Assembly: GCA_031283585.1 (NCBI GenBank)
Contig: JAITBP010000003.1
Coordinates: 1-32,000, forward strand
Source: Puniceicoccales bacterium
GTDB lineage: Bacteria > Verrucomicrobiota > Verrucomicrobiia > Opitutales > LL51
Length of the DNA stretch: 32,000 bases
Reading direction: 5' to 3'
The notes under the pieces were generated by a model that had not been told where the DNA came from, did no database searches, and saw nothing but the letters and a program-made list of their open reading frames with translations. Each line of letters starts with the position of its first letter. Position 1 is the first letter of the stretch. A program made the position numbers and the translations under genes. Below are positions 713-25,983 of the stretch, in pieces.

Positions 713-3673
713 ATGAATAATAAAAGAATTAAAGAAATGTTAGAACAGCGGCTGAAGCAGCTTGGATTGCTGGGTGTTTTAGGCCTAGGTTTTGGTGTCC
801 TAGGTACTGTAAGTTCCCAGGCGGCGTTGCCTGCTAGCGTTAATGATCAAGGCGTTACGTCCGCTGATCTTAATGCCACCACTGGTGCTGTGACCTATAA
901 TGCCAGCGCAGCTGATAAATTTGCGGTGTTGAATCTAAGTGCACCTGCTACTATAGCTGGCAATGACGTAACACTTAGTGGTCCGGGTACCATCGGTATG
1001 ACTTTCGCTGCCGCTGGCGAATACGGGCTTGGTGGTTCTGGTAAGGCTGTGAAGATTGCTGGCGATCCGAAGTTATTGTTTTTTAGCAATGTGGCCAATG
1101 GTGATGTGACGATTAAAGGTGATAATATCGATGATTCGGTTTCTAAGGCTATCCGGCCTTTGCTCCTCACAACCGGTGAAAATAAATTGATTTTCGGATC
1201 ATTGAGTCCTAATGGTGGCGATTCTCTGCGTATTATAAGCGGGAAAGCTGGTCTTATCCAGATGATAGCTCCAGAGGGTGTTAATGTTAAGGCATTGGTG
1301 CTTGGTGCGGCGGCCGAAGAAAAGGTGCCAGTGGTTAGGTATAAAGTCGGTGTGGCTGGAACTATTGAGATCACCGAACAGCCGGCTTCCGGTGGTAATC
1401 TGCTGGTTATATCTGGTGGAGCCAGCAAGAGTGTCCTGGCTTCGGAAGGTGGTGTGGTCTATGGTGAAAGCTCGCTGAAGATCGGTAATGCTAATGCAGT
1501 AAACAATGTGCTGAATCTGGGCAGAGACCTGGTGGTAACCGAGGGCGCAATCCTGACCCTGGCCGGTACGGATATGACTGGTAACACAGCTAGTTCAATT
1601 ACAATCAAGGCTTCGAAGACTTTGGACGGCAGTGCGTCGGCGGATAAAAGTGGCAATATAGTTATTTCCAAGGGTGCTACGGTAAGATTGCTTAGCAATG
1701 TGATTCTGAGCGATACGACTGGCAAAAAGCTGACCAGTGGCTTTGTGCTAAGCGGTGACGACGATGCGGAAAACAAAACCATCGCCAAGCTGTTGGCCGA
1801 CGGCGGAGCTCGCACGATTACCATTCAGAACGAATCCTCGGTGCCGGTGATCCAGGTGGCCGATGGCAGTGCCGGTTTGATCGGCGGCAATCAACCATTG
1901 ATACTGAGTAGCGTCGATGGTAAGGATGTGTTGGTACAAGTGGGTGCCGGTGGTATGCTGAAGATCGATGGCTTAGTTACATTGGATTCCAAGGCACGGA
2001 ACGAAGGCTCTTTTCAGGTTAAAGATAAGGCCACATTGGTGTTTATCAATGCGCCCAAATCACAATTAAATGTCGGTGCGAATGATAGGATAGTTTTTGC
2101 AGCTAAATCTGGAGGTATTTCCTTTGATGCTCCGGAAAAAGGTTCAGATGTCCCCCAGTTGATATTGGCAAGTGTTGATAGTCTTGTTAACGTTGGTGAT
2201 ACCAAAATCCCCATTGATCTAGAAGGTAAATCATTCATTGATTTAGGGTTGGAAAGCCCAGGTAAACATGATTACAAGGTCGTATTAATCGGTCTAGGTG
2301 ATGGTAAATTTGATGATTTGATGAATAAAATCGATTGTGAAAAATTTTCCAACAGTATAGTCGCCGATGTCAATATTGGTGTAATTGGTCAAAACCTGTA
2401 CGGCATCAATGGTTATGAATCCATTGCCTATGGTGATGCGTTGGCTGATAATGCTGAGTCTGTCTCAGGTATATCCGAAGATTTTGTTGATGTCATTGAA
2501 TCTATGCAGGGAGCTGGAAAGCCGACAACTAATCGTAAAAAACTTTTCGGTATGTTGACAGCGAGATACGATGAAGAAGAAGAAGGGTTCGATAATGGTG
2601 ACCTAGCGCGTTCAATATCACGCAGTACGGCTGCCGAGCGTAATCGTGTGACCATGGCAATTGCCAATATGGCTCGCGGTGCTGCCTATTCCCATATGTG
2701 CCGAGAAATTGGTGATAAGGAGCTATGGGCTGCTGGTATGGGCGATCTTCTTCGTCAAAAAGAAGTCAATGGCTACGGTATGCGTGCCGGATTATGGGGC
2801 CTGGCCATAGGCTACGACATGAACCTCTCGGATGAGTCGGTACTTGGTCTGTTAGCTGGTTATGGGCATGCTAAAATGAAATACAATGGGTCGACGTTAC
2901 TCGATGGCAATAATGGAAGTCAACGGTCATTCTTTGGTGGTGTCTATGGTGAATGGAATTCTCTGGAAAATGCCATACGTACCAAATTTTCCGCATTAAT
3001 GGGTCGTTCAAAATATAAAGAGTGGGGAAATAGACCTGTGCCTGGCACGAAACAGGAAGACTATTCGGCCGAAATAGCTAGATTCTCATCCTCTCACAGA
3101 GGCTATTGGGCATCTCTTAACGTAGATTGTGTTTATTTACCATGGGAATATAACAACATAAAGTTTGGTCCATGGGTTGCTTTGACCTATGATTATGTGA
3201 ACCAAAAGAATGGGTCAGAATCCGTGGATGCAGGGCTTGATGAATCTGATGATAACCCCACCGAGCCAACCGCAACCAGCCCAGGGGCAGAAACAGCAAA
3301 ATCTGATAATAATGTTGCCAAAGAAAGTGAAGACTGGGATCCGGCAGATGGGCTTATCTATAGCAAGTCCAAATGTCATATGTTGAGTCCTGTGATCGGT
3401 ATTCATGCCGAAACGGATCTTTCTTTAGGTAAAGTCTTTGCTGAAGTTGGCTATAAACGCGAGCTTTGGAAGAAAAATAAAGTCGGTACCGTGGAGTATT
3501 ACGATGAAGAATATTCTCCTGCCCTAGGAAATGTAGGAAAGAATTCCTGTGTAGTCAGGCTTGGCTATGGGTTAACAAAAAATAACTGGGGCTTCGATCT
3601 CGGCTTAGAAGGTCAATTTAGTAAAAACTGGAAAGATTATTCAGCCAACATAGCTGCGACCTATTCATTCTAA
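713..3673 (+). CDS. Autotransporter adhesin-like outer membrane protein (986 aa)
   Basis: N-terminal signal-like segment (LGLLGVLGLGFGVLGTVSSQA/A). Long Gly/Val/Ser/Thr/Asn-rich passenger with beta-helix-like composition. C-terminal beta-barrel region runs from about LWAAGMGDLL...GLWGLAIGYD...VLGLLAGYG to the terminal ATYSF. GAGAGG lies upstream of the ATG. Confidence 0.8.
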   Translation: MNNKRIKEMLEQRLKQLGLLGVLGLGFGVLGTVSSQAALPASVNDQGVTSADLNATTGAVTYNASAADKFAVLNLSAPATIAGNDVTLSGPGTIGMTFAAAGEYGLGGSGKAVKIAGDPKLLFFSNVANGDVTIKGDNIDDSVSKAIRPLLLTTGENKLIFGSLSPNGGDSLRIISGKAGLIQMIAPEGVNVKALVLGAAAEEKVPVVRYKVGVAGTIEITEQPASGGNLLVISGGASKSVLASEGGVVYGESSLKIGNANAVNNVLNLGRDLVVTEGAILTLAGTDMTGNTASSITIKASKTLDGSASADKSGNIVISKGATVRLLSNVILSDTTGKKLTSGFVLSGDDDAENKTIAKLLADGGARTITIQNESSVPVIQVADGSAGLIGGNQPLILSSVDGKDVLVQVGAGGMLKIDGLVTLDSKARNEGSFQVKDKATLVFINAPKSQLNVGANDRIVFAAKSGGISFDAPEKGSDVPQLILASVDSLVNVGDTKIPIDLEGKSFIDLGLESPGKHDYKVVLIGLGDGKFDDLMNKIDCEKFSNSIVADVNIGVIGQNLYGINGYESIAYGDALADNAESVSGISEDFVDVIESMQGAGKPTTNRKKLFGMLTARYDEEEEGFDNGDLARSISRSTAAERNRVTMAIANMARGAAYSHMCREIGDKELWAAGMGDLLRQKEVNGYGMRAGLWGLAIGYDMNLSDESVLGLLAGYGHAKMKYNGSTLLDGNNGSQRSFFGGVYGEWNSLENAIRTKFSALMGRSKYKEWGNRPVPGTKQEDYSAEIARFSSSHRGYWASLNVDCVYLPWEYNNIKFGPWVALTYDYVNQKNGSESVDAGLDESDDNPTEPTATSPGAETAKSDNNVAKESEDWDPADGLIYSKSKCHMLSPVIGIHAETDLSLGKVFAEVGYKRELWKKNKVGTVEYYDEEYSPALGNVGKNSCVVRLGYGLTKNNWGFDLGLEGQFSKNWKDYSANIAATYSF

Positions 3674-3753: not shown

Positions 3754-3783
3754 TTGACAATACCTGTGGTTTGGTTGTATATT
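3754..3783 (+). promoter_or_regulatory. Putative sigma70-type promoter of dnaN
   Basis: TTGACA at 3754-3759, an 18-nt spacer, then TATATT at 3778-3783 preceded by TG. The -10 element ends 12 nt before the dnaN ATG. Confidence 0.35.
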
Positions 3784-3795
3784 GTGCACCATTCT

Positions 3796-4926
3796 ATGAA
3801 GTTCGTAGCTAATAAGGAAGCCGTGTTAGCGGCATTGCAACAGGTATCTAATATTGTTGGAAATAGACCGGCCATGCCCATTTTATCAAATGTACTAATA
3901 GAAGCAGACCTGGATAAAGGTGTTGTTTTTTTTACAACTACAAATCTTGATATCGGGATTCACTGTGGCATAAAATCAGAAGTTTTGGCAATGGGTGGAA
4001 TTACATTGCCGGCAAAAAAGCTATCTATGATCGTCAAGTCATTGCCGGGTAATGAGTTGAGTGTTGAACTAGTAAATGATCTCAAGGTCAAGATTTCATC
4101 AAATGGTTCTGTTTTCATACTATCCGGCCTGGATCAATCTGAATTTCCTAGATTGTCAAAAATCGATGAAACTAATGGCATTACGATGAAGCAATACGAT
4201 TTTGTATCGATGCTTAAGAATGTTTCCTATGCCCAGTCAAAGGATGAAAATAGGTATGTTCTAAATGGGGTGTATTTTTCGACGGAAGATGATAGGGTCA
4301 ACCTTGTTGCTACCGACGGCCGGCGCTTGAGCCTTATTTCTAGAAAATTCGATGGGGCAATCAATTTCAAATCTGTTATAATTCCGGCGAAGACTGTGCT
4401 GGAATTGGAACGTATGCTTATCTTTGGTAGTGATGTAAACATCTATTCGGACGATAGGCAGATATGGTTTAGGATCCAGGTGGATAGGGAAGACAATTCC
4501 GGATTGACTGGAGACATCAGTGTTGTTTCGAAAATCGTTGAAGGCAAATACCCTAATTATAAGCAAGTGATACCAGTCACCACGGAACATCGAATAAGGT
4601 TGGATCGGGAAAGGTTTCTGGAAATGGTTCAAAGGGTTTCAATTGTTGCCGATGAGAGAAATTGTTCCATAAGATTTAAAATAGCTAATAATTCAATAGA
4701 AGCACGTTCGTTCAGCCAGTCCTGTGGTGAAGCCAATGAATCTTTGTCTATTGCCTATGAAGAAGTTCCAATAGAATTAGCCTTCAACCCGAAATTTGTG
4801 GCAGATCCACTCAGGGCTTTATTGAAGGACGAGGTGTATTTTGAGTTCAAAGATGAGCTTAGCCCCGGAGTGTTTAAAGATACCGACGGCCTGGTATGCG
4901 TTGTTATGCCATTGAGACTTAACTAG
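3796..4926 (+). CDS. dnaN: DNA polymerase III beta sliding clamp
   Basis: Starts MKFVANKEAVLAALQQVSNIV, a typical DnaN N-terminus, and contains LVATDGRRLS. At about 376 aa the length is typical. The track's TTG start at 3754 coincides with the predicted -35 box, so I prefer ATG 3796. Confidence 0.9.
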   Translation: MKFVANKEAVLAALQQVSNIVGNRPAMPILSNVLIEADLDKGVVFFTTTNLDIGIHCGIKSEVLAMGGITLPAKKLSMIVKSLPGNELSVELVNDLKVKISSNGSVFILSGLDQSEFPRLSKIDETNGITMKQYDFVSMLKNVSYAQSKDENRYVLNGVYFSTEDDRVNLVATDGRRLSLISRKFDGAINFKSVIIPAKTVLELERMLIFGSDVNIYSDDRQIWFRIQVDREDNSGLTGDISVVSKIVEGKYPNYKQVIPVTTEHRIRLDRERFLEMVQRVSIVADERNCSIRFKIANNSIEARSFSQSCGEANESLSIAYEEVPIELAFNPKFVADPLRALLKDEVYFEFKDELSPGVFKDTDGLVCVVMPLRLN

Positions 4927-18435: not shown

Positions 18436-19197
18436 ATGAGTCTGGATGGGTTGATTCCGTCAAAACGTGTCAGTGCCGAGGTGATGCGCGATTTCAGTGA
18501 AGATGGAAGCGCTGCCCGGGTATTTTTTGATAGTCTTAGGGCCAACGCACTGGATTGTTTTCGTAGTGGAGACAAGGTGGCATCCGATAACATATGGAAG
18601 CTCTATGATTACGTTGCTTCTTTAGACATAACAACCAGGGACTTGTTTATTGCCACCGATCCGGCCTGGCTATTATCAAAAATGATAGATAAATTGATGC
18701 CGGATTCCCAGGAAGCCCTGTGTGAAATGCCCGAGATGTTCTATAAGCATCAGAATACCAACGGCGATATCCAGGACAGATCAAAATCGATGCTATACAA
18801 TATTGCTGATAAATTAGGTGGAGTTACGTCCGATGAGGCTCAAAAGTTGTTTTTTAAGTCTGTCAATGGCCTGGGTCCACTAACCGATGAGGGCGGTTTT
18901 TTGGCAAATGTTGTAAAAAATATTGGAGATAACTTTGGAAAAGTCCCGGTGGTTAGCCAAAATTCCTGCATTTCCCTGATTGGTAACGGTGCAACCCAAT
19001 GCGCCCATATGCCCCAGATTGCACAGCAAAATTTTTCCAGAGGCGTGGCGGAGATGCTAAGATCCACCAGGTTTCCATATAAATTTGACAAAGATTCGCT
19101 GCGAGAGGCGTTGTTTCGTATGCCGGATTATTTGATGTCCAAGGAGCTAGACAGTGCCATAGAGGACTTTGATAGTAACGTTTCCGCCGATGTTTGA
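18436..19197 (+). CDS. Hypothetical soluble protein (253 aa), no recognisable family
   Basis: Clean 762-nt ORF filling the gap between mnmG and the methyltransferase. No signal peptide, TM segment or motif that I recognise. Confidence 0.55.
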   Translation: MSLDGLIPSKRVSAEVMRDFSEDGSAARVFFDSLRANALDCFRSGDKVASDNIWKLYDYVASLDITTRDLFIATDPAWLLSKMIDKLMPDSQEALCEMPEMFYKHQNTNGDIQDRSKSMLYNIADKLGGVTSDEAQKLFFKSVNGLGPLTDEGGFLANVVKNIGDNFGKVPVVSQNSCISLIGNGATQCAHMPQIAQQNFSRGVAEMLRSTRFPYKFDKDSLREALFRMPDYLMSKELDSAIEDFDSNVSADV

Positions 19198-19295
19198 TGC
19201 TGAATAGCCGGTTTTTTGGCTAGATAAAAAATCTGTATTATTTCTTGAAAATTGCAGTCAATGTAGTAAGTTCTGGTCGAAGAATTTCTATAATT

Positions 19296-20918
19296 ATGGT
19301 GAAAAAGGCTAGTGCAACTATTGCGGATCCAAGGGACACAAAAGCTAAAGATACTTCCACATCGTCACAAAATTCCTACGATGTGATTAAATATGAAAGT
19401 AGAGTATTCCATGAGTCCAGTCCACAGCATCTACGAATGATGGCCAGGTTGTTTGGTATGAATGCTCCGAAGGCGTCAAAGGCTAGGGTGTTAGAATTGG
19501 GTTGTGGTGTCGGTGGAAATATAATGCCATTGGCTGTCCTATTCCCCGAAGCGAAGTTCGTCGGTGTTGATCTGTCGGAGGTCCAGATAACCGAAGGGAA
19601 AAAGGATATCGATGCACTGGGATTGAAGAACATAGAACTGACGCATATGTCCATATCGGATATCGATATCGATTTTGGTGAATTTGATTACATAATTTGC
19701 CACGGCGTTTTTTCCTGGGTACCGAAACAGGTACAATGGGATATAATCCGGGTGTGTAAAGAAAACCTGTCGAAACATGGCGTGGCCTATGTCAGCTATA
19801 ACACATTGCCCGGCTGGGGAGTGGTGAGTACTATCCGGGACATGATGGTCTATCACACCAAGGATTTTTCCGATCCCAAGGAAAAGGTTTCCCAGGCCAT
19901 AACTATGCTAAAGTTTGCTTTGGAAAACCAGACAGGTGAAACCAATCATTGGAAGGTTGCACTGGAAAAGGAGCTGAAGATATTGACGAATACTACAGCT
20001 GATTATGTTTTTCATGAACATCTGGAGGAAAACAACAATCCGATGTATTTTTACCAGTTTATTGAGATGGCTAATAAGGCAGGATTAAAGTATTTGGGAG
20101 ATTCTTCATTGGCTTCGATGTATGTGGGCAATATGACGGCCAAGGCGGCTGATACCTTGAAAGGTCTAACGAACCAGGTGCATCAGGAGCAGTATATGGA
20201 TTTTGTCAGAAATAGACGGTTTCGAAGTACATTGCTGTGCCATGATTCAAATAATCTAAACTTTAACCTGTCCGCGGAAAAAGCGTTTGAGTTTTATCTG
20301 TCGTTAAATTCAAGTGTTAAGCCGGATTTCGATCCGACTTTGGAGGACTGGACCAAGGAAGGTCCACGTTCATTTAACAATGGTGACATGGTGGCAAATG
20401 ATAGGATCATAGCCCTGGCTATGATAGTGTTGATGGAAAAGAATGGTCATAGGATCTCGGCGAATGAATTGGTTACCGAAACCACCAAAAGACTTGGCTG
20501 GAACAATGAATTGGCCGTGCATGCGATGCTAGGCAACTGTGTTATGGAGTTGGCCATGCGAGGAGGAATTTTTCTGTATGATGGCCCGGAACACTGCGTG
20601 CGAACAATTTCAGAAAAGCCCGAGGTTTGGCGCTATGCCTGGCATAGGGCTGAAGCCGGCAATATTTTGGTCAATGTGGATTTGAAATCCGCTAGAGTAG
20701 ATTTTTTTTATGCGGAATTTGCAAAGCTCTTGGATGGTAACCGGACGAAGAACGAAGCCATCGACGAACTTAAAAAAAATTTAAAAAAACTAAAAGTCGC
20801 TGTCAAAGCTAATGATGGCAGTAAGATTACCGATGAGGCCACCATCGATGGTGAGATAGAAGCATTTGCCCTGAAGGCACTTGATTATTTTTTAGCAGAA
20901 TCATTTCTTGTTGCCTAG
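19296..20918 (+). CDS. Class I SAM-dependent methyltransferase with a long C-terminal regulatory domain (rickettsial PKMT1/PKMT2 OmpB lysine methyltransferase-like)
   Basis: SAM motif ARVLELGCGVGGN...FVGVDLS.VQI. The family-specific strings FDYIICHGVFSWVP, SYNTLPGWGVVSTIRDMMVYH and EQYMDFVRNRRFRSTLLCH match my memory of the PKMT / MethyTransf_Reg (PF10119) architecture. The ~540-aa length also fits. I prefer ATG 19296 to the track's TTG 19245. Confidence 0.7.
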   Translation: MVKKASATIADPRDTKAKDTSTSSQNSYDVIKYESRVFHESSPQHLRMMARLFGMNAPKASKARVLELGCGVGGNIMPLAVLFPEAKFVGVDLSEVQITEGKKDIDALGLKNIELTHMSISDIDIDFGEFDYIICHGVFSWVPKQVQWDIIRVCKENLSKHGVAYVSYNTLPGWGVVSTIRDMMVYHTKDFSDPKEKVSQAITMLKFALENQTGETNHWKVALEKELKILTNTTADYVFHEHLEENNNPMYFYQFIEMANKAGLKYLGDSSLASMYVGNMTAKAADTLKGLTNQVHQEQYMDFVRNRRFRSTLLCHDSNNLNFNLSAEKAFEFYLSLNSSVKPDFDPTLEDWTKEGPRSFNNGDMVANDRIIALAMIVLMEKNGHRISANELVTETTKRLGWNNELAVHAMLGNCVMELAMRGGIFLYDGPEHCVRTISEKPEVWRYAWHRAEAGNILVNVDLKSARVDFFYAEFAKLLDGNRTKNEAIDELKKNLKKLKVAVKANDGSKITDEATIDGEIEAFALKALDYFLAESFLVA

Positions 20919-20919
20919 C

Positions 20920-22338
20920 ATGGAAATTTTGTCCATTTATAATACATTAGCGAGGAGTAACCAGGAATTGGTGGCCGCCGAAGGGCGGCCATTTGGTGTA
21001 TATTGCTGTGGACCAACGGTTTATAACTACGCTCACCTGGGAAACTTTCGTACATTTATTCTCCAGGATATTCTGGTTCGAGTATTGAAAGTCGCAGGCT
21101 ACGATGTGAAGTTCGTCAGAAACCTGACCGATGTGGATGACAAAACCATAAAAAATTCCCTGGCCCTGGGGATGAAGTTGAAGGAATTCACAGGGGAATG
21201 GGAGAACGTGTTTCGGGATGATTGTCAGCGGTTGAATTTGCTGCGACCTGATGTGGAACCGCGTGCCACAGAACATATTAAGGAGCAGATAGCGCTGATA
21301 GAAAAACTGATTGCCGGTGGTCATGCCTATGTTACCCAGGATGGTTCGGTTTATTACGACGTATCCAGTTTTAAAGATTATGGAAAGCTTTCTGGCGTAA
21401 ATGTTTCCGATTTGAAAACCCAGTCTTCCAATAGTGCCGGTGAGAGAAATGAGGCCGATGAATATGTCCGGGAAAATGCCTGTGACTTTGCCCTATGGAA
21501 AGCAAGAAAAGCCTCCGATGGTGAGAATTTTTGGCCAAGTCCCTGGGGTGATGGCCGCCCGGGTTGGCATATAGAGTGCAGCGCCATGTCGATGCTATAC
21601 CTTGGCAATACCATCGATTTACACTGCGGTGGGGTTGATCTATGTTTCCCTCACCATGAGAACGAGATAGCACAATCTGAAGCCGCCACCGGTGAGATCT
21701 TTTCCAGGTACTGGTTTCATACGGCCCATCTTCTTATGGATGGCGAAAAAATGTCAAAGAGCCTGGGCAACATATTTGCGCTCAATGACATAATGGCGAA
21801 GGGCTTTTCCCCCATAGTGATTAGATATGTCCTGGCCTCCTGCCACTATCGCCAGCAGCTAAATTTTACAGTCGATGGGCTACGTTCAGCCACCGGTGCA
21901 ATCCACAGAATCATCTCGACCCTCTCCAGGCTGAAAACGATGGCCGGGTGTGCCGACATAACCAGCGTGCCCTTTGTTGGCTGGAAATATTTTAAGGAAG
22001 CCTGGGAGGCTCTGAAAACTGACCTAAATATACCCCAATGCCTGGGCAATATTTTTTCCGTTCTAAATGAACTGGATCTGGAGTCCCTGGCCGTCGACCA
22101 GAGTAAGTATTGCCTGGCAGAAATATACAGGTTGCTCTATGCTCTGGGGTTGGATAATCTGTCGGACTTTGTCGATGCCAATGTTCCCGATGACCTGCGA
22201 ATCATGGCAGAAGAACGTTGGACCGCAAAATTGGGTAAAAATTTCGCCCTGGCAGATACGCTAAGGTTGAAAATTAACGAATCAGGTTGGGAAATAAACG
22301 ATTCCAAGACCTATTATACCGTCTTTAAGTCTCTCTAG
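20920..22338 (+). CDS. cysS: Cysteinyl-tRNA synthetase
   Basis: YCCGPTVYNYAHLGNFRTF (HIGH-type motif), GWHIECSAMS and KMSKSLGN. ATG 20920 lies 1 nt after the methyltransferase stop codon. Confidence 0.9.
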   Translation: MEILSIYNTLARSNQELVAAEGRPFGVYCCGPTVYNYAHLGNFRTFILQDILVRVLKVAGYDVKFVRNLTDVDDKTIKNSLALGMKLKEFTGEWENVFRDDCQRLNLLRPDVEPRATEHIKEQIALIEKLIAGGHAYVTQDGSVYYDVSSFKDYGKLSGVNVSDLKTQSSNSAGERNEADEYVRENACDFALWKARKASDGENFWPSPWGDGRPGWHIECSAMSMLYLGNTIDLHCGGVDLCFPHHENEIAQSEAATGEIFSRYWFHTAHLLMDGEKMSKSLGNIFALNDIMAKGFSPIVIRYVLASCHYRQQLNFTVDGLRSATGAIHRIISTLSRLKTMAGCADITSVPFVGWKYFKEAWEALKTDLNIPQCLGNIFSVLNELDLESLAVDQSKYCLAEIYRLLYALGLDNLSDFVDANVPDDLRIMAEERWTAKLGKNFALADTLRLKINESGWEINDSKTYYTVFKSL

Positions 22339-22435
22339 CTGAACGCTCCTCTATTTATTAAAGAGGCTAAGTCAATAAATAATTGTAACTAGCGATATAA
22401 TTATTAAACTTTCGTAACGCTGGCTTAGGCTTTGG

Positions 22436-22810
22436 ATGGATAATAGTCAGAAAGAATTCTTGATGGTTTTGGCGTACTTGTACATACGATATAGCAAGTA
22501 CGATGAGGCATTTTTGTTGCTCAAAGGGTTAAAGGAATTTTTTCCTGATGATATCGATTTAGGGTTAAGTTATGCCAATGCCTGTTTCGCAACTCAGAGA
22601 CCGAAAGATGCTTTTGCGGAACTGGAGGCTTTGGATGGCAAGGAATTAGATAATCAGCAAAAGAAGTTATTTTATATATTGCGTAGCAAAACCATGTGGG
22701 CCCTTGGGCATGATAGCGAAGCAAGATCTGCTCTGGTTCATTTCCTTGGAATTGAAGAACGAGAGGCGCGATTGGCCGAGGTAACAAGAAAAAAAAGTAG
22801 GGAAAAGTGA
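22436..22810 (+). CDS. sctY: Small TPR-like type III secretion chaperone, YscY/Pcr4 (SctY)-like
   Basis: 124 aa and helical/TPR-like (YDEAFLLLKGLKEFFPDD). The N-terminal SQKEFLMVLAYLYI resembles YscY's QQEFLLLNGWLQL as I remember it. It lies directly upstream of sctV with a 4-nt GTGA overlap, the position YscY occupies in Ysc-type loci. Confidence 0.55.
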   Translation: MDNSQKEFLMVLAYLYIRYSKYDEAFLLLKGLKEFFPDDIDLGLSYANACFATQRPKDAFAELEALDGKELDNQQKKLFYILRSKTMWALGHDSEARSALVHFLGIEEREARLAEVTRKKSREK

Positions 22811-24912
22811 AATTAACAACAAGAATAAGTGGAGCTATAAGTACTGTAACTAATTGCAGTGACGTACTCTTAGCATTGCTGGTAGTGGCGGTTATCATGT
22901 TGATGGTGGTGCCAATACCCACCGCATTTTTGGACCTGCTATTGGCTGTAAACCTGTCTATCAGCATCACGTTGTTGATGATATCGTTGTACATTCCAAG
23001 GGTTTTGTCCATATCCACGTTCCCCAGCATACTGCTATTCACTACCCTGTTTCGATTAGCCCTAAGTATAACAACAACAAGGCTTATATTGATAGATGCC
23101 GATGCGGGTGAAATTATAGAAACCTTTGGTAATTTTGTCGTGGCCGGCAATTTCGTTGTCGGTGCTGTCATATTTTTAATCCTATTGATTGTTCAGTTTG
23201 TGGTTATAACCAAGGGTGCCGAGCGTGTATCCGAGGTCACCGCAAGGTTCACATTGGACGCGATGCCCGGTAAACAAATGAGTATTGATGCCGATCTGCG
23301 AGCCGGAAGTATAGATACCGACCAGGCAAAACTCAAGCGTACAGAGCTGGAGCAGGAGAATCAACTCTATGGGTCGCTGGACGGAGCAATGAAATTTGTC
23401 AAAGGTGATGCCATCGCTGGCCTTATAATAACATTCATCGACATAGTTGCCGGTCTCATAATCGGTGTTTTCCAGAAGGGAATGGAGCCGGGCAAAGCTA
23501 TAGAGGTGTATTCGATTCTAACCATAGGTGATGGCCTTGTTTCACAAATACCTGCACTGCTGATATCTATTACCGCCGGCGTAATCGTGACCAGGGTATC
23601 ATCCGATGCGGCAAATCCACTGGGCCGAGACATAGGTAAGCAGTTGCTGTCAAGACCCAAAGCGCTGGTTATCGGCGGTTGTTTGATCGTTGGATTTATG
23701 TTAATACCTGGGTTCCCCAAGATACCATTTGTGATTATCGGTATTATTTCGTTCATTACTGGTCGTTCGCTTATGAAATCGGAGGATGAACAGAAGGGAG
23801 GCGGAACCAAGGCGGCGAAGCTTGCCAAGGCCACGGGTATGCCATCCGATGTGGCACCAAATATACCTACATTTAAAGAGGAAAAAGAGGAATTTTCTGT
23901 TACGGTGCCATTGCTGATTGATGTGGCAACATCCATAGAGGAATCTGTGGATCCCGGCGCGTTGAATGATCAGCTAATCCAGGTCAGGAAAGCCCTATAC
24001 TACGATCTAGGTGTACCGTTCCCTGGCATACATCTTAGGTTCAATGAAAACCTGAGCGATGGCATATATCAGATTCTATTGCAGGAGGTACCGATTTCTC
24101 AAGGTAAGATTCTTAAGGATCATGTGCTTGTCCGTGAATCCAAGGAAAGCCTAGGAATTCTGAATATTCAATATCAGGAAGAGAAGGCATTTTTACCAAA
24201 TATACCGTCCCTATGGGTACACAAGGGCCTCAGGCCACAGATGGACAAGGCCAGCATTAGCTATATGACTACACCTCAAATATTTACTTATCATCTATCA
24301 TTTATATTAAAGAAATATTCCGGTGAATTTATTGGGTTGCAGGAAACGAGATTTATACTGGAAAATATGGAGAAAAATTTCCCGGAACTGGTCAAGGAAG
24401 TCCAAAGGGTGTTGCCGGTACAGAAGATAGGAGAGGTGCTGCAACGCCTGGTTCAAGAAGACATTTCTATAAGAAATTTGAGGCTCATCATCCAATGCCT
24501 AATAGACTGGGGTCAGAAGGAAAAAGAGCCGGTATTATTAGCCGATTATGTCAGATCTAGCCTAAAAAGATATATCAGTTATAAATACAGTGGTGGCCAA
24601 AATATCCTGGCCGTATATCTGCTGGATCCATCGGTCGAGGATGTGGTGAGAAAAGCCATAAGGCAAACCTCTGCAGGGAGTTATTTGGCACTCGAACCGG
24701 ACACGGCTAAGAAAATTGTTCATAAGGTTAAGGAAGAAGTTGGCGACTTTTCACGGGAATCAAACCGTCCTGTGTTGCTAACATCAATGGACATAAGACG
24801 TTACCTGCGTAAGTTGATAGAGCTGGAGCTTTACGAACTGCCAGTGCTATCCCACCAGGAACTGACCGAGGAGATAACAATTCAACCACTGGGGAGAATT
24901 TCACTTGTGTAA
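22807..24912 (+). CDS. sctV: Type III secretion export gate protein SctV (YscV/LcrD family, FHIPEP)
   Basis: FPSILLFTTLFRLALSITTTRLIL, FGNFVV, RFTLDAMPGKQMSIDADLRAG, MKFVKGDAIAGLII and GDGLVSQIPALLISITAG. The cytoplasmic domain contains VPLLIDV, LGVPFPGIHLRFNE, EFIGLQETR, LVKEVQR, QRLVQEDISIRN, WGQKEKE, RSSLKRYISYKY, RQTSAGSYLALEP and SMDIRRYLRKLIE..LPVLSHQELT..I.IQPLGRI. These cytoplasmic strings match YscV closely as I recall it, and less well FlhA or chlamydial CdsV. Confidence 0.9.
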   Translation: MKLTTRISGAISTVTNCSDVLLALLVVAVIMLMVVPIPTAFLDLLLAVNLSISITLLMISLYIPRVLSISTFPSILLFTTLFRLALSITTTRLILIDADAGEIIETFGNFVVAGNFVVGAVIFLILLIVQFVVITKGAERVSEVTARFTLDAMPGKQMSIDADLRAGSIDTDQAKLKRTELEQENQLYGSLDGAMKFVKGDAIAGLIITFIDIVAGLIIGVFQKGMEPGKAIEVYSILTIGDGLVSQIPALLISITAGVIVTRVSSDAANPLGRDIGKQLLSRPKALVIGGCLIVGFMLIPGFPKIPFVIIGIISFITGRSLMKSEDEQKGGGTKAAKLAKATGMPSDVAPNIPTFKEEKEEFSVTVPLLIDVATSIEESVDPGALNDQLIQVRKALYYDLGVPFPGIHLRFNENLSDGIYQILLQEVPISQGKILKDHVLVRESKESLGILNIQYQEEKAFLPNIPSLWVHKGLRPQMDKASISYMTTPQIFTYHLSFILKKYSGEFIGLQETRFILENMEKNFPELVKEVQRVLPVQKIGEVLQRLVQEDISIRNLRLIIQCLIDWGQKEKEPVLLADYVRSSLKRYISYKYSGGQNILAVYLLDPSVEDVVRKAIRQTSAGSYLALEPDTAKKIVHKVKEEVGDFSRESNRPVLLTSMDIRRYLRKLIELELYELPVLSHQELTEEITIQPLGRISLV

Positions 24913-24936: not shown

Positions 24937-25983
24937 ATGGCAAATGGGTTCGAAGATTCAATGGATGAAAAAAACAGCAGCAGCACACGGGTTTCTGAGG
25001 CCAGAAATCTTTTAGTGATTGCTGATAAGATGTTTAATGAGTACGGCCTGGGTAACGATACCATCGATAAGCTTTTTGAACTTGAGTTTGTGAAACCGTA
25101 TAAGTCTGACGTGATTGAAGCCATAAAGGATGAGCGCAATCGCTTTGAAATGATGGGCTTGGTTCCGGAAGGTGGCTGGGAGAAATTGCCCCTAGAGGTC
25201 GATGAGCAAAATGACGAAAAGTCCCAGGAAATGCTCAAGCGTAGGGCTAAAACGCCAGGGAAAGATAAACCGGAAATCGCTGTTAATAAAGAAGATAAGC
25301 GTAGCTCTTTGCAGCAAATGGCTGTTGTAAAGAACAAATTGGAAGAGTTTATCGAAAACGTAAAGGCTTCCGAAGCAGAACTGAAAGACGCGATGGCCGA
25401 ACCACAAAAACTGGCATTGCAAAAGAAGTCCGAGCCGGTTTCGGATAGTAGTCTGCCACTGGCCTATGACGGCAAGGCTGATAAAGCTAAAATAGCTGAG
25501 TCAGTCAGGTCCGATGAATATAAAGAGGTTTCGATTTCCGAGTATTCTGAAAAAATCGAGCAGACTGACGATTACCAGAAAATTTCTACTAGTCAGGCGA
25601 TAAAGAAGGTTGCCGATGAACTGGAAAAAGCCGGTGTTATGGTTCCAGAATGTCGTTGTGATGCTTTAAAGAAAGATCCGGAAGATGTTGAAGTAGATAA
25701 TATTACGGAATCTGCACCAAAATCACCTGCCCAGGGCAATAAAGCCTATCGTTCCAGTCGCACTAGGGGTACCGTAATATCGGCCCTGAGGTCCAGCATA
25801 AATCGTTATAGATCAATCGAACCAGGTTTAGTGAAAGAAAAAAATGAAGGTCTGCAACAAGTTAGAGAACCAAGCAACTTGTCAGATGTGCCAACACAGC
25901 CAATTGCTATCGAAGGAAGCACTGATAGCAAAAATGCCGATGTCAGCAAGAAGGTGAAAATTAGGAGAAGGCTGAAATTGTAG
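24937..25983 (+). CDS. Hypothetical highly charged (Glu/Lys/Asp/Ser-rich) protein, 348 aa
   Basis: ORF starts 24 nt after sctV, with GGAGAGGG upstream. No TM segment or signal peptide. Composition suggests coiled-coil or disorder, with a basic tail KKVKIRRRLKL. No family recognised. Confidence 0.6.
   Translation: MANGFEDSMDEKNSSSTRVSEARNLLVIADKMFNEYGLGNDTIDKLFELEFVKPYKSDVIEAIKDERNRFEMMGLVPEGGWEKLPLEVDEQNDEKSQEMLKRRAKTPGKDKPEIAVNKEDKRSSLQQMAVVKNKLEEFIENVKASEAELKDAMAEPQKLALQKKSEPVSDSSLPLAYDGKADKAKIAESVRSDEYKEVSISEYSEKIEQTDDYQKISTSQAIKKVADELEKAGVMVPECRCDALKKDPEDVEVDNITESAPKSPAQGNKAYRSSRTRGTVISALRSSINRYRSIEPGLVKEKNEGLQQVREPSNLSDVPTQPIAIEGSTDSKNADVSKKVKIRRRLKL

Follow-up and report, generated by a model that had tools for sequence, protein, structure and literature searches.

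We describe a window of 32,000 nt, the whole stretch of DNA that was read and part of a 141,162-bp contig of a Puniceicoccales metagenome-assembled genome (MAG; locus tags LBB20_), which carries at positions 22436-24912 two adjacent genes, sctY and sctV, belonging to a Ysc-family type III secretion system (T3SS). We consider this pair to be a rearranged piece of a scattered, functional Ysc-type injectisome, with a probability of roughly 0.72. The preliminary description of this DNA had left the choice between injectisome genes dispersed around the genome and a detached export-gate module. Our data favour the former, given the presence of sister lineages with canonical operons having sctS, sctT and sctU nearby and the purifying selection acting on SctV, while the idea of a free-standing gate found no support. 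SctX and SctY define the Ysc family and are believed to cooperate at the SctV ring, their exact role being unclear (PMC9163089), and among the features that make the locus unusual is the separation of sctY from sctX.

The unit to which the pair belongs lies entirely on the forward strand. The gene sctY (22436-22810; ATG start, TGA stop; NF052415) encodes a 124-aa tetratricopeptide repeat (TPR) chaperone of the SctY/YscY family and sctV (22807-24912; GTG start; TIGR01399, FHIPEP) the 701-aa export-gate subunit. The stop codon of the former and the start codon of the latter share the sequence GTGA, resulting in a 4-nt overlap, and by its gene arrangement this is a translationally coupled Ysc-type pair, the direct succession of the two genes being shared with Yersinia and all related loci. 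Starting 24 nt past sctV, a third gene (24937-25983) encodes an acidic, largely disordered protein of 348 aa, called p348 here, and 24 nt past p348 the 5' part of a giant open reading frame (ORF) begins (26008-32000, more than 1,997 codons), which is still open at the window end. With this spacing of a 4-nt overlap followed by two gaps of 24 nt, sctY, sctV, p348 and the giant ORF are presumably transcribed as one unit. Its upstream boundary is formed by cysS (20908-22338, forward strand), encoding cysteine-tRNA ligase (Pfam tRNA-synt_1e, 376.7 bits), which ends 97 nt before sctY (spacer 22339-22435). The proteins are deposited at NCBI as MDR2735315-17 (locus tags LBB20_00515-00525), labelled 'MAG: Puniceicoccales bacterium', and the product of sctY (LBB20_00515) is annotated as hypothetical protein. 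The junction of cysS and sctY is not an assembly artefact since the same junction was recovered from SRR14710909 in the Logan data, assembled independently, and is also present in three further assemblies, i.e. the loci L087, L002 and L097.

The sctV product is, judged from its model scores and its phylogenetic position, a full-length SctV of the Ysc family and clearly not a flagellar FlhA. It reaches 903.7 bits with the SctV equivalog model TIGR01399 (cut-off 692.25; residues 18-698), stays with 632.1 bits under the cut-off of 772.1 of the FlhA model TIGR01398 and matches Pfam FHIPEP (PF00771) end-to-end with 762 bits. All hydrophobic windows are located within residues 9-318, the remainder of the protein being soluble. 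Arginines in SD3/SD4 matching R551, R669 and R701 of YscV are kept, and so are the conserved arginines of the SD4 cleft, which also bind the stalk protein SctO. In tblastn comparisons the protein is 57% identical to SctV of Photobacterium, 52% to LcrD of Yersinia and 48% to an SctV encoded on a Desulfovibrio megaplasmid, followed by HrcV of Ralstonia (Hrp2) and MxiA of Shigella (41% each), rhizobial proteins (37%) and FlhA (28-34%). The arginines of YscV contacting YscX were considered as a proxy for the presence of SctX and rejected, as they are also found in chlamydial SctV of systems lacking SctX; being conserved in all injectisome SctV proteins, chlamydial included, they are not diagnostic.

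A neighbour-joining tree of 81 SctV and FlhA sequences (200 bootstraps), which is a distance tree only, places the window SctV inside a Verrucomicrobiota clade (bootstrap 1.0) being sister to sequences from Lentisphaeria and Kiritimatiellota (0.945). Together with the proteins of Yersinia, Achromobacter and Desulfovibrionaceae, these form a broad Ysc clade with a support of 0.835. Chlamydial SctV is the next group outside this clade, and the Hrp, myxobacterial and flagellar sequences are more remote. A chlamydial origin, first guessed from the compact housekeeping context, was ruled out by the SctV matches and by the tree. That SctV might cluster with flagellar FlhA had been named beforehand as an outcome to be checked; by model cut-off and in the tree it is far from FlhA. 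Within the Verrucomicrobiota, the window sequence groups with those of L087 and L002 (0.815; the SctV of L097 is not in the tree), sister to the Puniceicoccales sequences from canonical operons (1.0).

The assignment of the 124-aa protein as YscY-like, proposed in the preliminary description, held up in both sequence models and predicted structure. The SctY equivalog model NF052415 matches with 79.0 bits above its cut-off of 70 and covers model positions 1-104 of 106; from Pfam only the generic families TPR_14 and TPR_19 are found. Searches of the PDB by sequence, either with the single sequence or with a thin profile, returned generic TPR matches and the SctY of entry 8ARC at E=0.38, too weak to be decisive, so that a fold search was needed. 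An AlphaFold2 (AF2) model built from a six-sequence alignment shows six helices with a mean predicted local distance difference test score (pLDDT) of 93.7. Its best Foldseek matches in the PDB are the YscY chains of 7QIJ, 7QIH and 8ARA and the SctY chain of 8ARC (E 6e-4 to 3e-3, TM-score 0.74-0.87, root mean square deviation about 2 A), 7QIJ being the crystal structure of the YscV:YscX:YscY complex. Just behind these rank designed or generic TPR proteins and class-II chaperones of the LcrH/PcrH/IpgC type. The protein is furthermore 49-54% identical to the SctY proteins of L083, L084 and L085, each of which follows a gene of the Pfam family YscX (PF09474), and at the sequence level its orthology to SctY proteins that follow sctX is clear.

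No sctX, and no other sct gene, accompanies the pair. The preliminary description had stated that cysS ends 97 nt before sctY, leaving no room for sctX, that no other sct gene is present in the window and that the lcrR/G/V/H-yopBD neighbours are absent, and all of this stands: the coordinates are exact, and a phmmer comparison of 34 Ysc, Lcr and Yop proteins of Y. pestis pCD1 with the six-frame translation of the window returned SctV as the sole match. Hidden Markov models (HMMs) built from the clade for SctW, TyeA, SycN, SctX, SctS/T/U, LcrH and the translocators gave no match in the window either, and no homologue of lcrR, lcrG, lcrV, lcrH, yopB or yopD was detected in it. The other ORFs of the window of at least 110 aa have housekeeping, autotransporter or methyltransferase domains or belong to no family. 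An SctX-like ORF is found in no frame of the window, at neither of the screened loci L002 and L087, nor by jackhmmer in L097. A canonical Ysc locus close by can be discounted within 22 kb upstream and 7 kb downstream of the pair.

The absence of sctX from this position is a real exception and not a common variant, because SctX is encoded upstream in nearly all other sctY-sctV loci examined. In an iterative search of all fetched loci, SctX was found directly 5' of sctY-sctV in Yersinia, Achromobacter, Oxalobacteraceae and alpha- and gammaproteobacterial MAGs, in Lentisphaeria, Kiritimatiellota and canonical Puniceicoccales, and weakly in the Desulfovibrionaceae locus L011. The search was negative for the loci of the window type, for Bilophila L010, where a 134-aa ORF holds this position, and, as expected, for the chlamydial and myxobacterial systems. 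The context is thus non-canonical as had been described, and it is exceptional among the loci examined with SctY directly before SctV. At the loci of the window type cysS occupies the position which is held by sctW-tyeA-sycN-sctX in the sister lineages. The 97-nt spacer following cysS is highly similar to that of the sister MAG represented by L087 and probably holds the promoter of sctY-sctV; neither a sigma-70 consensus site nor an intrinsic terminator was scored in it, and it matches no Rfam family.

Two types of loci were found in related Puniceicoccales. A search with SctY returned only seven clusters among 5.8 billion proteins, with identities of 49-83%. Loci of the canonical type (L083 of GCA_052847535.1, L084, L085, L091-94 and the short contigs L089 and L090) encode in this order a gatekeeper-like protein of about 360-400 aa (sctW), TyeA (PF09059), a SycN-like chaperone, SctX, SctY and SctV, which is exactly the Yersinia order yopN-tyeA-sycN-yscX-yscY-yscV; tyeA and sycN are seen wherever a contig of this type extends far enough upstream. 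Their SctX belongs to PF09474 and reaches 61 bits with TIGR02502 (cut-off 30). A few kb upstream in L083, L084 and L091, sctS-T-U is encoded divergently, with a comM-like gene in between and with no sctR or sctQ beside it. Downstream of sctV, L083 and L084 encode a 147-aa protein, a variable protein of 734-1,091 aa, a chaperone similar to LcrH/SycD and translocon proteins similar to SseD/SctB. The window type, in contrast, has the order cysS, SctY, SctV, a protein of 341-373 aa and a giant ORF, and is represented by five loci: the window, its Logan copy, L087 (MAG LBI37, JGI 3300042636), L002 (MAG LBD40, i.e. JAITIW) and L097 (JGI 3300042618). The SctV of the window is 74-75% identical to those of the canonical loci L083-85, and the neighbourhood of uppS-cdsA and pgi is common to L085 and the window. 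In L090 an AT-rich non-coding spacer of about 820 nt (1487-2303) separates sctX from sctY, suggesting that the sctX-sctY junction, which is broken in the window, was loosened independently in L090. The canonical-type locus L085 and the window-type locus L087 both derive from the JGI metagenome 3300042636; their accessions (MDR1457508 and MDR1458547, LBI37_03440) suggest that they were binned into different MAGs, and one sample seems to contain two related populations that differ in their T3SS gene order.

These comparisons suggest a model according to which the ancestral operon would have comprised sctW-tyeA-sycN-sctX-sctY-sctV, followed by the 147-aa protein, the large variable protein, the lcrH-like chaperone and the translocators. 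In one sub-lineage a single break exactly between sctX and sctY would have left sctY-sctV in the same chromosomal neighbourhood, producing the present unit in which cysS is followed by sctY-sctV-p348-giant. SctV would then form the nonameric gate for export in an injectisome, the other parts of which have their genes elsewhere in the genome, SctY would dock as a TPR chaperone on the cytoplasmic SctV ring, presumably delivering an SctX encoded elsewhere, and p348 and the giant protein would be expressed together with the gate and act as regulators or substrates associated with the T3SS. No function of SctV is known outside a complete type III export apparatus, the gate needing SctRSTU and the ATPase complex, and the other injectisome components are therefore most probably encoded elsewhere. 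The position of sctSTU apart from sctR, sctQ and sctN in the canonical relatives may be taken as indirect support for scattering, and so may the Puniceicoccales SctU genes that lie beside non-T3SS genes in metagenomes of the same series.

A different explanation, which we regard as unlikely, is that SctX was lost in the sub-lineage from an otherwise complete injectisome and that SctY was retargeted to p348 or to the Pro-rich N-terminus of the giant protein. Consistent with this, sctX is missing at all loci of the window type, being located upstream in all other Ysc-type loci examined except for Bilophila L010. The middle part of SctY (residues 40-75) has diverged, with 32% identity between the window and the canonical type compared to 59% within the canonical type. 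p348 and the giant ORF are tightly linked to sctV in a conserved position, their products are devoid of Sec signals and transmembrane (TM) segments, and the giant protein has a conserved N-terminal region. However, YscX is essential in Yersinia for a secretion-competent machine, its C-terminal helix being the main contact to YscV, and the first TPR of YscY contacts helices alpha2 and alpha3 of YscX and also touches SD4 of YscV (PMC9163089). It is this first TPR which is the best-conserved part of SctY between the two types (67% identity), and its sequence conservation fits with a retained SctX. The tail of p348 is basic, in contrast to the hydrophobic C-terminal helix of SctX, and hhalign reveals no similarity between the two. 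Finally, the absence of sctX applies to the loci of the window type.

A scattered injectisome is also to be preferred over a detached gate module, in which sctY-sctV would export or handle the neighbouring novel proteins without an injectisome. The lack of any other sct gene within 22 kb upstream or 7 kb downstream and the compact unit formed with two lineage-specific proteins are compatible with such a module, which we nevertheless judge very improbable. Apart from the lack of any T3SS-independent function of SctV known to us, the protein is full-length and keeps both the TM region and the SD4-cleft arginines that also serve in SctO binding. Sister lineages with a 75% identical SctV have sctSTU and the gatekeeper operon beside it, and SctU genes of Puniceicoccales are present in the same metagenomes. 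The latter were recovered with the C-terminal domain of SctU as query, which returned fragments of less than 275 aa, Puniceicoccales SctU in metagenomes of the same series being among them; some are located beside non-T3SS genes, i.e. lysS-bamA-dnaB in L088 and marC in L095 and L096. The homologue search used appears to favour proteins of about the length of the query (fusions of about 610 aa for a query of 712 aa, less than 275 aa for one of 158 aa) and, with this length bias, missed the full-length source protein of its own query, so that the lack of a match is weak evidence. A concatenated query of SctS, SctT and SctU was discarded, its matches being solely FliR/FlhB fusions of similar length.

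As an observation on SctU, the autocleavage motif NPTH of other SctU/FlhB proteins is replaced by NPEH in the canonical-type Puniceicoccales (L083, 3695-4780, reverse strand; L084, 401-1486, reverse strand) and in several JGI fragments. The NPEH proteins are listed as P0024-P0031, P0033, P0038, P0144 and P0145, and NPTH is kept in the fragments P0032 and P0034.

Selection on the locus bears on whether the gate is in use. Comparing the window with L087, SctV is 93.7% identical, SctY 83%, the C-terminus of CysS 63%, p348 59% and the N-terminus of the giant protein 64%; for L002 the values are 77%, 47%, 52%, 24% and 24%, respectively. The ratios of nonsynonymous to synonymous substitution rates (dN/dS; Nei-Gojobori, against L087) amount to 0.03 for SctV, 0.08 for SctY, 0.10 for cysS, 0.13 for p348 and 0.14 for the giant N-terminus, these values being approximate because dS is near saturation (1.0-2.2), which is a first point to be held against a functional gate. 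SctV is the slowest-evolving and most constrained gene at the locus, and since it is under stronger purifying selection than cysS, we conclude that the gate is in use. The same constraint disfavours the view that the pair is a decaying T3SS remnant in a shrinking symbiont genome, with sctY and sctV becoming pseudogenes. The upstream half of the operon is indeed gone from the locus, and the host-associated look, the compact gene spacing and the location of nearly all genes on one strand would suit a shrinking genome. Nevertheless, the ORFs of sctY and sctV are intact in all window-type assemblies, and a protein with a dN/dS of 0.03 that is 93.7% identical where the C-terminus of CysS is 63% identical is hardly the product of a pseudogene in the making; we strongly disfavour this explanation and assign it next to no probability.

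Further points weigh against a scattered, functional injectisome. In the 32 kb of the 141,162-bp contig covered, no other sct gene of this genome was seen. None of the SctU fragments from L088, L095 and L096 could be assigned to the LBB20 MAG or to its sub-lineage, GC content and GC content at third codon positions (GC3) not being discriminating. No member of the window type yielded an SctX; a metagenome scan based on the SctX alignment was uninformative, the pattern EEKLKKVL being too common, with two SctX loci among the matches listed. Transcription may read through from cysS into sctY, because the 97-nt spacer showed neither a promoter nor a terminator when scanned. Finally, the MAGs are incomplete, which bears alike on the presence and on the absence of genes elsewhere.

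The preliminary description had termed the two downstream proteins members of unknown families. This holds insofar as neither p348 nor the giant protein belongs to a Pfam or NCBIfam family; both are acidic and have neither a signal peptide or N-terminal hydrophobic signal nor a TM segment. For p348 it has to be qualified: residues 5-80 align by hhalign with residues 27-110 of the 147-aa protein encoded 3' of sctV in the canonical relatives (P=0.0009, 76 columns), which is a stronger match than the positive control of clade SctX against YscX (P=0.0044), and the basic C-terminal tails are alike (SKKVKIRRRLKL in p348, SKRLVRRVRI in the 147-aa family). On the basis of this alignment p348 is probably an expanded positional homologue of the 147-aa protein, so that the ancestral gene order 3' of sctV seems to be partly retained. 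Compared by hhalign with LcrR, LcrG, LcrV, YopN, TyeA, YscX, clade SctX and clade SctW, p348 shows no similarity, and neither does the 147-aa protein with LcrR and LcrG. For p348, AF2 gave a model too poor for a fold search (pLDDT 50), in which the first ~160 residues hold most of the helices and the rest is largely disordered. Homologues of p348 occupy the same position in L087, L002 and L097, and the protein may act as a T3SS-associated regulator or substrate.

In all three of these loci the position 3' of the p348 homologue is held by a giant ORF, which in L097, following cysS-sctY-sctV and the gene for a 373-aa protein, encodes at least 4,424 aa and is still open. The giant family is very small, with 17 homologues among 1.84 billion representatives, several of which have 3,815-7,571 aa. 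Its N-terminus contains a conserved Pro-rich region of about 180 aa, in which certain P, G, E and N residues are invariant; a profile comparison of this part with the 734/1091-aa proteins of the canonical relatives revealed no similarity. Near the window end the giant ORF begins to repeat itself internally, the period being about 223 aa, with copies at about 31174-31383 (INSSTIFTDVEKASLIIKVGGKVPWTPTTSS) and 31843-31998 (INDSTIFTYTEKVALITELGGKVPGTSTTS). The tight linkage to the export gate, the lack of a Sec signal and the fast evolution make the giant protein a candidate for a secreted host-interaction protein. An extension of this idea would be that SctX has been lost, that the SctY-SctV gate has been rewired to the proteins of its own operon and that the giants of a termite-gut protist symbiont are T3SS substrates with the Pro-rich N-terminal region mediating their targeting. 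We consider this combination doubtful, and less probable than the loss of SctX as set out above; with at least 4,424 aa, and 7,571 aa for the longest homologue, such giants would be far larger than any T3SS substrate known to us.

Among known systems, the Ysc/Lcr system of Yersinia is one of the closest. In the order yopN-tyeA-sycN-yscX-yscY-yscV(lcrD)-lcrR-lcrG-lcrV-lcrH-yopB-yopD on pCD1, the genes corresponding to sctY and sctV are translationally coupled as in the window, and the SctV proteins of Yersinia and Photobacterium share 52-57% identity with that of the window. The family also comprises Psc of Pseudomonas, Asc of Aeromonas and Bsc of Bordetella/Achromobacter. Unlike in Yersinia, cysS takes the place of sctW, tyeA, sycN and sctX upstream, and the genes at the 3' side encode the largely disordered 348-aa protein and the giant ORF; unlike the proteobacterial pathogens carrying Ysc systems, the host is a member of the Verrucomicrobiota from a termite-gut data set. 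The canonical Puniceicoccales loci (L083, L084, L085, L091) share with the window the adjacent sctY-sctV (SctV 74-75%, SctY 49-54% identical). They differ in having sctW-tyeA-sycN-sctX upstream, sctSTU nearby and lcrH together with translocon-like genes downstream, where the window type has the giant ORF instead.

In terms of genome organisation the window resembles the Chlamydiae, which belong to the same PVC superphylum (Planctomycetes, Verrucomicrobia and Chlamydiae): its sct genes are located among housekeeping genes in a compact, host-associated genome. In Chlamydiae, cdsU-cdsV-copN-scc1 is separate from the other cds clusters. In the chlamydial loci L012, L014 and L026 sctV is flanked by two or three sct genes only. 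All Chlamydiales, as well as Hamiltonella, are documented to have scattered and functional loci of non-flagellar T3SS (NF-T3SS; PMC3459982), and the chlamydial systems form a separate family without SctX and SctY (PMC9163089). In contrast to the chlamydial clade, the window SctV groups with the Ysc family, and the scattering in this genome is a putative one.

The remainder of the window encodes mainly housekeeping functions, i.e. dnaN, tsaE, pgi, rpsU, glgB, uppS, cdsA, a methyltransferase of the TP_methylase family, xerC/D, trkH, rpsO and mnmG, in addition to two autotransporters, a 253-aa protein and a PKMT-like methyltransferase. The gene dnaN (3754-4926, forward strand) is preceded by an autotransporter gene and not by dnaA. 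Over the full 32 kb the GC skew is positive, and the forward strand carries almost every gene, which suggests that the window probably belongs to the leading strand of a compact genome, close to its replication origin. The autotransporter beta-domain genes (1-339 and 713-3673) and the gene of the 557-aa PKMT-like methyltransferase (19245-20918) are all on the forward strand, the latter encoding a regulatory domain of the PKMT type and a winged-helix domain at the C-terminus (PF10119, PF21782). Rickettsial enzymes methylating the autotransporter OmpB are the best-known proteins of this architecture, and the domain content makes it possible that the PKMT-like enzyme and the two autotransporters form a system for methylating surface proteins in a host-associated member of the Verrucomicrobiota. 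Between mnmG and the PKMT-like gene, an acidic ORF of 253 aa (18436-19197, forward strand) belongs to no Pfam or NCBIfam family and has no homologue in any fetched locus except for the Logan copy of the window itself.

As to the source of the DNA, the closest GTDB representative is the Puniceicoccales MAG JAITIW01 (Pcl387_bin136), the SctV of which is 76-77% identical. Its accession falls within the range JAIRJQ-JAITXW of termite-gut MAGs, and Pcl387 designates the gut of the lower termite Procryptotermes leewardensis, the host of this sister MAG (Mies et al. 2024; PMC11257099). The bacterium of the window probably derives from a termite gut as well. Termite-gut Opitutales, including the endonuclear 'Ca. 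Nucleococcus', are treated as putative endosymbionts of gut flagellates (PMC11257099). A full-text literature search found no paper naming both Puniceicoccales and type III secretion.

As a summary, our analysis documents genes of a Ysc-type injectisome in Puniceicoccales that are uncultured and come in part from termite guts. The arrangement is a variant, specific to one lineage, of a known system, and it occurs in a group of probable protist symbionts that has been little studied. It is unusual in two respects, sctY being separated from sctX and the export gate being linked in an operon to a family of giant proteins. A natural lineage with sctY-sctV uncoupled from sctX and under strong purifying selection provides a comparative handle on the function of SctY by itself and on the degree to which the operon can be dismantled. 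The giant proteins form a very small family with a genetic tie to the export gate and are candidate host-interaction factors. If the remaining sct genes are scattered in the genome, T3SS dispersal in host-associated PVC bacteria would have a further, probably independent, example besides the Chlamydiae.

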